4,110 nucleotides of DNA from Escherichia coli. GTDB lineage: Bacteria; Pseudomonadota; Gammaproteobacteria; Enterobacterales; Enterobacteriaceae. The notes below the pieces were generated by a model. It had not been told where the DNA came from, ran no database searches, and saw only the letters and a list, made by a program, of their open reading frames with translations. Made by a program: the position numbers and the translations under genes. Shown piece after piece: positions 448-4,026 of this stretch. Within the stretch, counting starts at the first letter, position 1, and each line of letters opens with the position of its first letter. Location of the stretch: assembly GCF_013315695.1 (NCBI RefSeq), contig NZ_CP054359.1. The stretch is one strand, 5' to 3'.

Positions 448-1149
448 ATGGTTGATTTGATAGCTTACAAATCCAATGCCTTAGTCGAAGCCAGCTACAA
501 GCTCACGTTACAGGAGCAGCGTTTCCTGTTGCTGTGCATTAGTCGATTACAGTCAGGTGTTGATGCTCCTCCACCTGAATTACAAAAGACCATGACTATT
601 ACGGCTGTGGAGTTTTTTAATTCATTTCCTGACATGGGAAGAAACCATGCCGAAGAAAAGTTACAGGAAGCGATCGATCGTCTGTGGGACAGGTCGATCA
701 TTCTTAAGGATGGTGAAAAACGCGAGGAGTTCCGTTGGATCCAGTATCGGGCGCAGTACCTGAAAGGCGAAGCAAAAGTTCAAATAACTTTCGCAGATGC
801 TGTAATGCCGTACTTAACGCAATTAAAAGGGCAATTCACAAAAGTTGTAATTAAAAACATATCTAATTTATCAAAGAGTTATAGCATCAGAATATACGAA
901 ATCCTCCAACAGTTCCGTAACACAGGGGAGCGGATGATTTCTCTAGATGATTTCCGCAGCATGCTACAACTGGAAGATAAATATAAAGATTTCAAGACGT
1001 TAAATAGAGCCCTCATAAAACCGGCAGTGGCGGAACTGAATCAAAAAAGCGATCTGGCCGTAACGGTTGAGACAATCAAGAAGGGGCGCACTGTCGTAGC
1101 CCTGCATTTTCGCTTCAAGGAAGACAAACAGATCAAGATGACGATCTAA
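448..1149 (+). CDS. repA: Iteron-binding plasmid replication initiator, Rep_3 (RepA/RepE/pi-like) family, 233 aa
   Basis: Complete ORF, ATG to TAA (1147-1149). The translation has the hallmarks I recall for Rep_3 initiators such as pPS10 RepA: an N-terminal ...SNALVEASYKLTLQEQRFLLLC... segment and a C-terminal ...YSIRIYEILQQF...ISLDDFRSMLQLEDKY...ELNQKSDL... segment. Located immediately downstream of the cognate iterons. Lower GC than the mob module. Confidence 0.85.
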   Translation: MVDLIAYKSNALVEASYKLTLQEQRFLLLCISRLQSGVDAPPPELQKTMTITAVEFFNSFPDMGRNHAEEKLQEAIDRLWDRSIILKDGEKREEFRWIQYRAQYLKGEAKVQITFADAVMPYLTQLKGQFTKVVIKNISNLSKSYSIRIYEILQQFRNTGERMISLDDFRSMLQLEDKYKDFKTLNRALIKPAVAELNQKSDLAVTVETIKKGRTVVALHFRFKEDKQIKMTI

Positions 1150-1398: not shown

Positions 1399-3558
1399 TC
1401 ACTGTGACCAACCGCGATCGTGCCTCCTCTCGGTGGCGTGTGTTCGTGCATCTTCCTCGCGCCGCCATTCGTCCCAGGTACGATTAAAACCCAGCGAGCG
1501 GAACAGATGATCCGGCTGTTTTTCTGGTGTATTGACGGCAGCAAAAAGCGGTGCCTCACGGGTTTTCAGATGAAACTCCATAAGTTCCGGTGCAGGTGAT
1601 ATGTGGCTGTCTGCATCGTGATTGACGGCAACACCATACCCTGCATACCGTAACCCCTTGTCCGTCAGCGCACTGATGACCAGATGCCTGTTATCGGCTG
1701 AGGGAACGGCAAACGCGGGATACAGCGTGCCATTAAGCCGGACAACGCCGCCCAGAGAGTCATCCACGCCCATGACCAGCAAAAGCTGAAGCTGGCGGGT
1801 TTCCCGGTCGACAGAACTCATTACCGGCATCAGCGTCGGTGGCAGACGTCCCTGCGTAAAATCCACCTTCCTTGCTGCCAGTGATGGCATGGCTGGCTGG
1901 CGGTCTTCTCCAAGACAGAAAAACTCCGGCCATGTCTTCGGCTGGCGGAGATTGCGGGTATGTTGTGGCCATGTCTGGCAAACCTGCGTCAGCAGTTGCT
2001 CAAAGGTCGCAGAGGAATAAACACGTTGCAGTGGTGGATGTTGACCGATTTCGCTTCGGTCACAGATATAACCACTCCTGTCACGCATTAAATCAACACG
2101 CTCAAAGATTCTGGTGCGGTATTTCTCCAGCTCGTTCCCCCAGAGCGTATATTCTCCGTTCCGGTTGTGAAGCAGAAGGTAACTGGTCATTTCCCCGTTA
2201 CCAGGCATGGGGGCCTCGCCATACCCCGTAACGACTGCTCTCAGTACCCCTGAATCCATAACGGCATTGTCATTTTTCCTGAGCTGCTCCGCTCGTCGCT
2301 CCGCGCGACTACGTTCTGTATCCTCCAGCTCCTTCCGGCGCAATTCCTCTTCACGTTTAAGCAACTGGGCTCTGAGAGCTGCAAGGCCGGATGCCCCCCA
2401 CTGCTGCCACTGTGTTTCAAATTCCGTCTGACTCGCGGGAATGTCCTGTTTCTCCACCTTCCGGTAATGCTGTCGCAATTTTTCCATTTGCTGGCTCAGA
2501 GACTGAATTTTTCCCTGCTCACTACGGTATTCCGGTGCAGCCCATTGCATCAGGGGAATACGGGAAAAACCGGACGAAAACGGCGATGATTTTTTCAGGC
2601 TGGCAGCATGGCTCATCGCTTCCTTTCGTTCGGTGTTCAGCTCTTCCCAGCGTCTGCGCGTCGCCTGCATATCTGTCATCATCGACATGGCATTACTGGT
2701 GAGTTTCCATGCCGCGTTACTGTCCTTCGGCAACGCTTCGATGATGTCACGTAGTGTGTACGAAGTTGCGTTGTCAGGAAGCTCAATATTCAGAAGGTCA
2801 GCCACACGGCGGGCAGGCTCTGTCAGCCCGCTGTTCCTGAGTTCGGTACGGAAAATCTGTATTTCCAGGCTAAGCCTGTTAATCAGACGATTCTGTTCGC
2901 CGCGTTCTGTTTCGATACCGCGTGTTTCCATCGCACAGGCAGACTTTCCGAGGTGAATACCAGGCGTTTTCTCAAGCCCCTGTCGCTCGTATGAACGATG
3001 GTCTATCTCTTCCTGATAACCGGCGTTCGCCAGTGCCCTGTTTGCATGGTCAGCCCATGATGCCCGCCACGTCTCGGCATGTGTCCGGTCGTTCCAGTCC
3101 CTGACCTTTCCACCGAACCCCGCAGGTCCGACAGCCCTCGTGGTCAGCATGATGTGCGCATGGGGATTTGTTTTATCCATGTGATGGAACGCCACATCAG
3201 CAATCATGCCCTGACTGACAAAGTTTTCTCTGACAAAGGCGAGAACGGTTTCCCGTGCGGCATCCTGCGGCAGTTCACGGGGGATGGCGAGTTCAATTTC
3301 CCGCGCAAGTTGTGAGTTCTTCCGACGTTCGGCCTTCTCAACGGCATTCCAGAGTTCGGTACGGTTCGTACACCAGGCAGGGGCGGTGGCGGGGGACAGA
3401 ATCACAGCCTCAGCCACACCGCTTTTGCGGGTGTAGTCGTGAGTCAGTCCGGTACGCTCATCAAGCATTAGTGAACCGGAACGATAGGCAGCAGAAGCAA
3501 CGGCGCTGTAGCCGTTGCTTCTGGAGATGATTTTCATGCTGAGATGATAAATCGCCAT
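1399..3558 (-). CDS. mobA: MOBQ-type mobilization relaxase MobA with C-terminal RepB'-like primase domain (relaxase-primase fusion), 719 aa from the conserved MAIYHL start
   Basis: The N-terminus MAIYHLSMKIISRSNGYSAVASAAY closely matches RSF1010/R1162 MobA (MAIYHLTAKTGSRSGGQSARAKADY), including the catalytic Tyr25 (codon 3484-3486). Histidine-triad metal-binding motif HHMDKTNPHAHIML and conserved WADHANRAL...IDHRS...GLE..PGIHLG are present. A central E/R/Q-rich predicted coiled-coil follows. C-terminal motifs ERVDLMRD, LLLVMGVDDSL and HLFRSLGFNRT resemble RSF1010 RepB' primase segments (ERFDIGVRD, LVLVDDLSEF, HYGRLAGFTNRK) as I recall them. Start chosen at ATG 3558 rather than the ORF-track start at 3663. 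Approximate domains: relaxase 2886..3558, linker 2181..2885, primase-like 1399..2180. Confidence 0.85.
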   Translation of the reverse strand: MAIYHLSMKIISRSNGYSAVASAAYRSGSLMLDERTGLTHDYTRKSGVAEAVILSPATAPAWCTNRTELWNAVEKAERRKNSQLAREIELAIPRELPQDAARETVLAFVRENFVSQGMIADVAFHHMDKTNPHAHIMLTTRAVGPAGFGGKVRDWNDRTHAETWRASWADHANRALANAGYQEEIDHRSYERQGLEKTPGIHLGKSACAMETRGIETERGEQNRLINRLSLEIQIFRTELRNSGLTEPARRVADLLNIELPDNATSYTLRDIIEALPKDSNAAWKLTSNAMSMMTDMQATRRRWEELNTERKEAMSHAASLKKSSPFSSGFSRIPLMQWAAPEYRSEQGKIQSLSQQMEKLRQHYRKVEKQDIPASQTEFETQWQQWGASGLAALRAQLLKREEELRRKELEDTERSRAERRAEQLRKNDNAVMDSGVLRAVVTGYGEAPMPGNGEMTSYLLLHNRNGEYTLWGNELEKYRTRIFERVDLMRDRSGYICDRSEIGQHPPLQRVYSSATFEQLLTQVCQTWPQHTRNLRQPKTWPEFFCLGEDRQPAMPSLAARKVDFTQGRLPPTLMPVMSSVDRETRQLQLLLVMGVDDSLGGVVRLNGTLYPAFAVPSADNRHLVISALTDKGLRYAGYGVAVNHDADSHISPAPELMEFHLKTREAPLFAAVNTPEKQPDHLFRSLGFNRTWDEWRREEDARTHATERRHDRGWSQ

Positions 3559-3602
3559 TTCTGCCGTAATGCCTTTTTGCAGTTTTCTTTCAGCCCCGCA
3601 GG

Positions 3603-3650
3603 GCGCACACAATCGAACCGAAGGTGAGATTGTATAAGTGCGCACTTCGT
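3603..3650 (+). other. Candidate origin of transfer (oriT), IncQ/MOBQ-like: imperfect inverted repeat with GAA loop followed by nic-core TAAGTGCGC
   Basis: Imperfect inverted repeat ACAATC-GA-ACC / GGT-GA-GATTGT (3609-3633) with a central GAA loop, followed 2 nt later by the 12-bp perfect palindrome AAGTGCGCACTT (3636-3647). TAAGTGCGC (3635-3643) matches the RSF1010 nic-region core GTAAGTGCG^CCCT. Sits between divergent mobA and mobC, on the strand antisense to mobA as in RSF1010. Predicted nic after G3642 on the + strand. Confidence 0.6.
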
Positions 3651-3699
3651 GATTTCTGCGCATTATGCCAGCTCAGTTTTTAAACTACCAGTGACGAGC

Positions 3700-3705
3700 T
3701 AAAAT
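3700..3705 (+). promoter_or_regulatory. Candidate -10 element (TAAAAT) of the mobC promoter
   Basis: 5/6 match to TATAAT, 30 bp upstream of the mobC ATG. The upstream -35 is poor (T-rich, around 3677-3682). GGAG Shine-Dalgarno at 3725-3728, 7 nt before the ATG. Confidence 0.3.
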
Positions 3706-3735
3706 GCGATTTTTCACCGCGCACGGAGTTACATC

Positions 3736-4026
3736 ATGAGCAGAACACTCGAACAGAAAATTGCCGAAGCTGAAGCCAGATTGCAGCGTCTGAAGGCAAA
3801 GAGCCGGAGCCTGGACACAGCGCAGAAGGTCGTTGTAGGTGCTGCATTGCTGGCAAAGGTCAGAAAGCCGGAGGAGGTGCAATTGCGCGCCTGGTTACTC
3901 CAGTTCCTGAAGGCAGAGGTGACACGGCAGGCTGATGTGAGCAGGATACAGCCGTTGATTGACGAACTGAACGCGTTGCCAAAACCCGTCCCCAAAGGCG
4001 TGTCAAAAAACGGCCAGCAGGCGTGA
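3736..4026 (+). CDS. mobC: Mobilization accessory protein MobC-like (relaxosome component), 96 aa
   Basis: Complete ORF, ATG to TGA (4024-4026), with a good RBS. Small protein with an N-terminal charged helix (AEAEARLQRLKAKSR) and the motif KVVVGAALLAKV, resembling RSF1010 MobC (about 94 aa, ...RKVLVGAMILAKV...). Divergent from mobA across the oriT, which is the IncQ arrangement. Confidence 0.7.
   Translation: MSRTLEQKIAEAEARLQRLKAKSRSLDTAQKVVVGAALLAKVRKPEEVQLRAWLLQFLKAEVTRQADVSRIQPLIDELNALPKPVPKGVSKNGQQA

Follow-up and report, generated by a model that had tools for sequence, protein, structure and literature searches.

The closest described systems to the locus studied here are the pIGWZ12-family plasmids, which belong to MOBQ41 (PMC6856555), and RSF1010/R1162 of MOBQ1. 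In the pIGWZ12 family, a Rep_3 replicon with iterons is accompanied by divergently oriented mobA and mobC genes, with an oriT of approximately 178 bp between them. The 178 bp separating mobC from mobA were treated as intergenic; the region confers mobilization as oriT and splitting it abolishes transfer (PMC6856555). The same report numbers the catalytic tyrosine of the relaxase Y25 and lists it with H125/H133/H135 as the MOBQ4 residues, while mapping of the nic site was not found in its supplement. The oriT of RSF1010 is overlapped by promoters P1-P3, which are subject to autoregulation by MobA and MobC (PMC2200642). A consensus for MOBQ oriTs, NWACCNNTAAGTGCGCCCTYNN, and a core, TAAGTGCGCCCT, are quoted in PMC3832669.

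The window, by which we mean the whole 4110-bp stretch of DNA that was analysed, resembles the pIGWZ12 family in its Rep_3 replicon with iterons, its divergent mobA and mobC genes, its intergenic oriT, and a relaxase that begins MAIYHL and carries Y25, and the DNA is ~90% identical over nearly the whole plasmid. It differs from that family in the length of the intergenic region (177 bp), in a 1-nt deletion that puts the ATG of a CATAATG motif in the mobA frame, in a variant hairpin loop, and in a MobC protein that is 12 aa longer. The comparison with RSF1010 was made on an RSF1010-type IncQ1 plasmid with identical MobA. There too, a nic core (TAAGTGCGC) on the strand opposite mobA is followed by an inverted repeat, a leader and ATGGCGATTTATCA (MAIYH), and mobC is divergent. 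However, mobA of RSF1010 is preceded by a GAGG Shine-Dalgarno, which the window lacks, and its frame meets a TAA 11 codons past the nic core, hence no long extension is possible there. The nic core contains CCCT in RSF1010 but CACT in the window, and nic core and ATG are 111 nt apart in the former and 84 nt apart in the latter. The relaxase domain is also like those of NES of pLW1043 (4HT4) and the MobA minimal relaxase domain (2NS6), a similarity at the level of sequence only. The locus is an ordinary MOBQ oriT-relaxase junction of an already described kind.

The window is a complete circular plasmid that is 100% identical to E. coli p.E166-P5 (NZ_CP032071.1), which has been typed as MOBQ with a Rep_3 replicon, and to one Salmonella plasmid. 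We found ~600 related plasmid records, mostly from E. coli, Salmonella and Shigella. The plasmid is a predicted mobilizable member of the MOBQ41/pIGWZ12 family of Garcillan-Barcia et al. 2019 (PMC6856555). The coordinates of its main features are given in Table 1. The segment 266-361 of the window comprises the iterons (AGGTGAACATTTCGGGGGT...) and, after them, a DnaA-box-like sequence, TTATCCACA, at 353-361. Another short tandem repeat, GTTTTTAAGATCTT, is present in 3.4 copies at 179-223, upstream of rep. On the minus strand, the relaxase scored 237.6 bits against Pfam PF03389 (MobA/MobL) and 263 bits against the NCBIfam model NF041496 (MobQ; cutoff 200), whose profile positions 1-197 aligned with residues 36-228 of the long ORF described below. 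Counted from ATG 3558, the tyrosine at residue 25 lies within AAYRSG, and HAHIM aligns with HCHLM of MobA, in agreement with a MOBQ4 relaxase. Over 83 aa, the product of the divergent gene shares 92% identity with a protein annotated as MobC (WP_000091744.1). No Pfam or NCBIfam model matched it, and its PGAP name is "hypothetical protein". It has 96 aa, as opposed to 84 aa in most relatives, with a C-terminus that is longer and divergent.

Table 1. Positions in the window of the plasmid genes and of the features at the mobC-mobA junction
Feature	Coordinates	Strand	Basis or remark
rep, Rep_3 initiator	448-1149	+	adjoins four iterons of ~21-22 bp
mobA, MOBQ4 relaxase; probable true CDS of 719 aa, MAIYHL start, catalytic Tyr25	1399-3558	-	
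35-codon in-frame extension, probably non-coding (mobA-proximal part of oriT plus mobA leader)	3559-3663	-	
A-rich mobA leader without Shine-Dalgarno, GCUGAAAGAAAACUGCAAAAAGGCAUUACGGCAGAA	3559-3590	-	duplex energy; mostly unpaired in predicted RNA fold
Block common to orphan oriTs, minimal conserved oriT core (~60 bp)	~3591-3652	+	alignment
Inverted repeat ACAATCGAACC / GAA / GGTGAGATTGT, presumed relaxase-binding hairpin; 11-nt arms 3609-3619 and 3623-3633	3609-3633	+	directly 5' of nic core
nic core TAAGTGCGCACT, on the strand opposite mobA	3635-3646	+	match to MOBQ oriT consensus
In-frame GTG inside nic core, 29 codons upstream of the probable true start	3643-3645	-	start of the 748-aa form in some RefSeq records
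Lineage-specific 1-nt deletion, GCGCAG-AAATCAC versus GCACGGCAAATCAC in relatives	~3655-3656	-	sequences, frame table, alignment
Upstream ATG, start of the longest ORF; overlaps candidate -10 hexamer	3661-3663	-	in frame in this plasmid lineage only
Candidate extended -10 element for mobA, TGgCATAAT	3662-3670	-	by-eye match plus conservation
mobC orthologue, relaxase accessory protein, 96 aa, divergent from mobA	3736-4026	+	bounds the 177-bp oriT intergenic region 3559-3735

The sequence TAAGTGCGC at 3635-3643 of the plus strand matches the MOBQ oriT consensus NWACCNNTAAGTGCGCCCTYNN, and the longer nic core agrees with TAAGTGCGCCCT at 11 of 12 positions, with the inverted repeat immediately on its 5' side. 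In MOBQ4 a perfect 12-nt palindrome, AAGTGCGCACTT, occupies 3636-3647, where the MOBQ consensus has ...GCGCCCTT. Since the palindromic core reads alike on both strands, only the flanking inverted repeat marks the plus strand as the one that is nicked. By analogy with R1162, cleavage would occur on the plus strand within GTGCG/CACT, at ~3642/3643. Folded as single-stranded DNA, the plus strand was more stable than its shuffled counterparts (z = -3.05). Compensatory changes in the outer stem (ACAATC/GATTGT to ACAAAC/GTTTGT) were seen in one relative, L014, and in the orphan oriTs described next.

Six related oriTs (L004-L009) are orphans, found on ColpVC and Col(MP18) plasmids of 2.0-2.7 kb that lack a relaxase and, in one case, on an IncF plasmid of 151 kb. 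The nic core was invariant in 11 of 11 relaxase-bearing aligned sequences (the window and ten relatives) and was kept in five of the six orphans, the remaining one (L004) having a single substitution in the last four bases (GCGCATTT). These data suggest that the orphan oriT plasmids exploit MOBQ4 relaxases supplied in trans. The stretch 3559-3663 is the mobA-proximal part of the predicted 177-bp oriT intergenic region.

The longest ORF across the relaxase gene (1399-3663, minus strand) encodes 754 aa and opens with MRRNHEVRTYTISPSVRLCAPCGAERKLQKGITAE followed by MAIYHL, the methionine of which is encoded by an in-frame ATG at 3558, 35 codons past the ORF start; translation from there gives 719 aa. 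The sequence-only reading of this DNA had held that a start at 3663 adds 35 residues that span the oriT palindrome, that the relaxase N-terminus MAIYHL begins at 3558 and the catalytic tyrosine is residue 25 only from that start, and that the extension is probably untranslated. The first two claims are borne out by the 105 nt at 3559-3663, which hold both the inverted repeat and the nic core, and by the position of the tyrosine in AAYRSG. The third is upheld by the start points of alignments, by frame shifts in relatives, by conservation of a DNA type and by the existence of the orphan oriTs.

Alignment of relaxase N-termini, one of the checks that the same reading had proposed, gave a consistent result. 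Profile position 1 fell on residue 36 of the long ORF in all four NCBIfam models that matched (MobQ NF041496, TraA PRK13889, TraA_Ti TIGR02768 and PRK13826), and the first residues of the PDB chains 4HT4 (NES) and 2NS6 (MobA) aligned to residue 37, with E values of 2.7e-28 and 5.7e-11, respectively. Among the best 120 homologues from a collection of 5.8 billion proteins, 100 have the exact start M-A-I-Y-H; the other 20 mostly show differences in the motif or 5' truncation, and approximately five have a longer N-terminal extension. PGAP places the mobQ start at the equivalent of 3558 in NZ_CP032071.1 and in seven relatives. MobA is thus very probably translated from ATG 3558 as a protein of 719 aa, in which MAIYHL...Tyr25 would be the conserved start of the HUH relaxase fold, and 3559-3663 would be untranslated oriT. 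Translation of the extension would yield peptides such as MRRNHEV..., (M)RTYTIS..., TYTISPSVR and LQKGITAEMAIYHLSMK, and the 719-aa form would yield (M)AIYHLSMK.

The upstream ATG was out of frame in all eight relatives examined. In seven of them (L003, L010-L013, L015 and L016) the ATG of CATAATG lies 106 nt from the MAIYHL ATG, versus 105 nt here, and the TAA within CATAATG is an in-frame stop. In L014 the offset is 98 nt, so the frame across oriT is a different one, and the relaxase N-terminus is unchanged. The 1-nt deletion listed in Table 1 brings ATG 3663 into frame and at the same time removes the TAA of CATAATG from it. Across 91 nt around the ATG, no more than 9 plasmid records out of 484, and 7 E. 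coli records out of 538, matched the window at 99% identity or higher. When the intergenic region was shuffled, 13% of the shuffles remained open over 35 codons or more. The open frame is no more than expected by chance; it is accidental, and its ATG-initiated form is lineage-specific.

We compared the 29 codons from the GTG to the ATG with the first 100 codons of mobA in 11 distinct sequences, a small sample of related family members. Variable sites were spread evenly over the three codon positions in the extension (5:5:6; 16 sites) but were concentrated at the third position in mobA (15:13:56; Fisher p = 0.047). Of the 11 variable codons in the extension, two varied only synonymously and nine changed the amino acid, as opposed to 39 and 26 in mobA (Fisher p = 0.019). 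At the nucleotide level, 18% of sites in the extension and 28% in mobA were variable, and a variability lower than that of the gene fits a constrained DNA element. The comparison of these codons as protein and as nucleotides, likewise put forward by the sequence-only reading, came out as expected for an untranslated stretch: the counts support an extension that appears to be conserved as DNA and not as protein. In its frame, its codon variation and the N-termini of its homologues, the 35-codon extension does not behave as a protein-coding sequence.

A wider scan, using one genome per species and seeking GCGCACTTAT 45-75 nt upstream of ATGGCNATHTAYCA, returned 72 loci from many phyla. The frame of the nic core relative to the start codon was evenly distributed among these distant loci (24:26:22; chi-square p = 0.85), and 34 of the 72 had an in-frame stop between nic core and ATG. 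Two over-extended distant homologues (P0031 and P0035) have the peptide RTYT in common with the extension in the window. We considered this as a case of protein conservation and rejected it, since the peptide comes from CGCACTTATAC, the nic core, which spurious TTG starts bring into one reading frame. Homologues that conserve the extension as protein, which the sequence-only reading took as grounds for abandoning an untranslated extension, can mislead here as a criterion, as such peptide conservation is only apparent.

The best duplex with the anti-Shine-Dalgarno sequence in the 22 nt before ATG 3558 had an energy of -3.2 kcal/mol at a spacing of 12 nt, which is background level; the window-wide median was -2.5 kcal/mol, and the values for rep and mobC were -8.5 and -6.1 kcal/mol, the latter with GGAG at 3725-3728. 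The sequence-only reading had remarked on the weak Shine-Dalgarno at this start, with which the energies agree, and had suggested that initiation may be unusual or coupled. The upstream candidates fared no better, with -4.0 kcal/mol before ATG 3663, at a spacing of 3 nt that makes it unusable, and +0.1 kcal/mol before GTG 3645. With no Shine-Dalgarno at ATG 3558, ribosome-binding signals give that codon no edge over the upstream candidates. Ribosomes must either start at ATG 3558 without the help of a Shine-Dalgarno sequence or initiate there very weakly. In L014 and L067 the variant leader is still A-rich and SD-less despite a length difference of 8 nt. We also considered absence of a Shine-Dalgarno as a general MOBQ trait and rejected this, since 26 of the 72 loci had a duplex of -6 kcal/mol or stronger. 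The fold of the putative leader RNA was no more stable than shuffles (z = -0.69), so that a regulatory mRNA structure is unsupported, and we found no evidence of translational coupling for the mobA start.

A scan of 3400-3900 with the sigma-70 consensus detected no full -35/-10 promoter. None of the 11 relaxase-bearing sequences varied in the TGgCATAAT element (GCATTATGCCAG), which the orphan oriTs lack. We propose it as a candidate extended -10 promoter element for mobA, for which the overlap of promoters with oriT in RSF1010 is a precedent. A transcript from this element would probably start near 3655 and would exclude ATG 3663.

Identical DNA has given public MobA proteins of 719, 748 and 754 aa, two of which translate the origin of transfer, and each of the longer forms amounts to a competing claim about the start. 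That MobA begins at ATG 3663 in this lineage, as a 754-aa protein with a 35-residue N-terminal extension, is in our estimation highly improbable. It is the longest ATG-start ORF, its exact product is called on 363 public contigs, where it is deposited as "mobilization protein A" (e.g. CSU02653.1), and the competing ATG 3558 has no Shine-Dalgarno. But ATG 3663 lacks a usable one as well, is in frame only through the lineage-specific deletion, and overlaps the conserved TGgCATAAT, which probably puts it upstream of the transcription start. The profile and structure alignments all begin at residue 36 or 37, and the 35 residues evolve like non-coding DNA. Equally hard to credit is a start at GTG 3645, inside the nic core, for the 748-aa form called by recent PGAP, perhaps as an isoform of the whole family. 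In most MOBQ4 plasmids this GTG is unchanged and shares the mobA frame, and it is used by RefSeq in WP_411543821.1, annotated as mobQ in NZ_OY754405.1 and NZ_OY754403.1, and in a related 748-aa protein, WP_420209698.1, found on 81 contigs. The RTYT frame is the mobA frame and is open for 35 codons in most MOBQ4 members, so a low-level product starting at the GTG could formally be made. However, the constancy of the GTG follows from its position within the nic core AAGTGCGC, and five of the six orphan oriTs, which have no relaxase gene, keep that core just as strictly; the L014/L067 lineage carries the GTG out of frame and has an unaltered relaxase N-terminus. Its duplex energy, given above, speaks against it too, the third-position bias of a coding sequence is absent downstream of it, and for identical DNA an older PGAP annotation has the 719-aa form.

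The absence of a Shine-Dalgarno before mobA might also be accounted for if the upstream frame were a leader ORF coupled to ATG 3558. In most of the family, including L014 and its seven companions among L003 and L010-L016, CATAATG provides the ATG of a 24-codon uORF, which crosses oriT and stops at a TGA ~31 nt upstream of mobA. Its equivalent in the window is 3590-3663 on the minus strand, where the 1-nt deletion has joined it to mobA. We give this reading very little weight: a gap of ~31 nt is too wide for coupling by termination and reinitiation, the window lineage has no separate uORF yet persists on hundreds of contigs, an open frame of 24 codons is expected by chance about one third of the time, and the ATG of the uORF overlaps the candidate -10 element. 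The 24-codon uORF is probably without meaning.

Read in the mobA sense, the junction comprises the candidate extended -10 element over ATG 3663, then the nic core (TAAGTGCGCACT on the opposite strand) and the putative relaxase-binding inverted repeat, and after these a GC-rich box and the A-rich SD-less leader. In most of the family, the frame is closed after 35 codons by the TAA in CATAATG; here, the deletion between this motif and the nic core brings the ATG into frame instead. This exchange of TAA for ATG by deletion creates an ATG-initiated longest ORF, which is what naive ORF finders and some annotation pipelines choose.

The start codon lies ~80 nt from the nic core, and the A-rich SD-less leader abuts oriT. 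It is tempting to connect this adjacency with the strong cis preference reported for MOBQ4 relaxases, with which the geometry and the absent Shine-Dalgarno are compatible, but we consider a functional tie of this kind unlikely. If it existed, newly made relaxase might reach the neighbouring nic site through rare and local coupled transcription and translation, and the relaxosome would occlude the 5' end of the transcript or the promoter.

The main value of these results lies in the quality of gene-start annotation. The sequence-only reading had warned that automated annotation could over-extend this gene, and this has occurred: an exact-sequence look-up returned the 719-aa form on 289 contigs, fewer than the 363 that carry the 754-aa form, and the 748-aa form has entered RefSeq. 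RefSeq mobQ starts even differ for identical DNA, with 719 aa in WP_052940773.1 and 748 aa in WP_411543821.1. Over-extension buries oriT in a "CDS", shifts the residue numbering of the catalytic tyrosine, and creates a spurious conserved RTYT peptide out of the nic core, which can be mistaken for conservation at the protein level.

Sequences nearly identical to the MOBQ4 plasmid were also present at loci L034, L041, L056, L063, L089, L093 and L067, in assemblies labelled as Clostridiales MAGs, Bradyrhizobium, Rhizobium wenxiniae, Chryseobacterium, Acinetobacter idrijaensis and Pseudomonas. Most of these contigs are short, and the MOBQ4 sequence in these assemblies is likely to be contaminating enterobacterial plasmid DNA.
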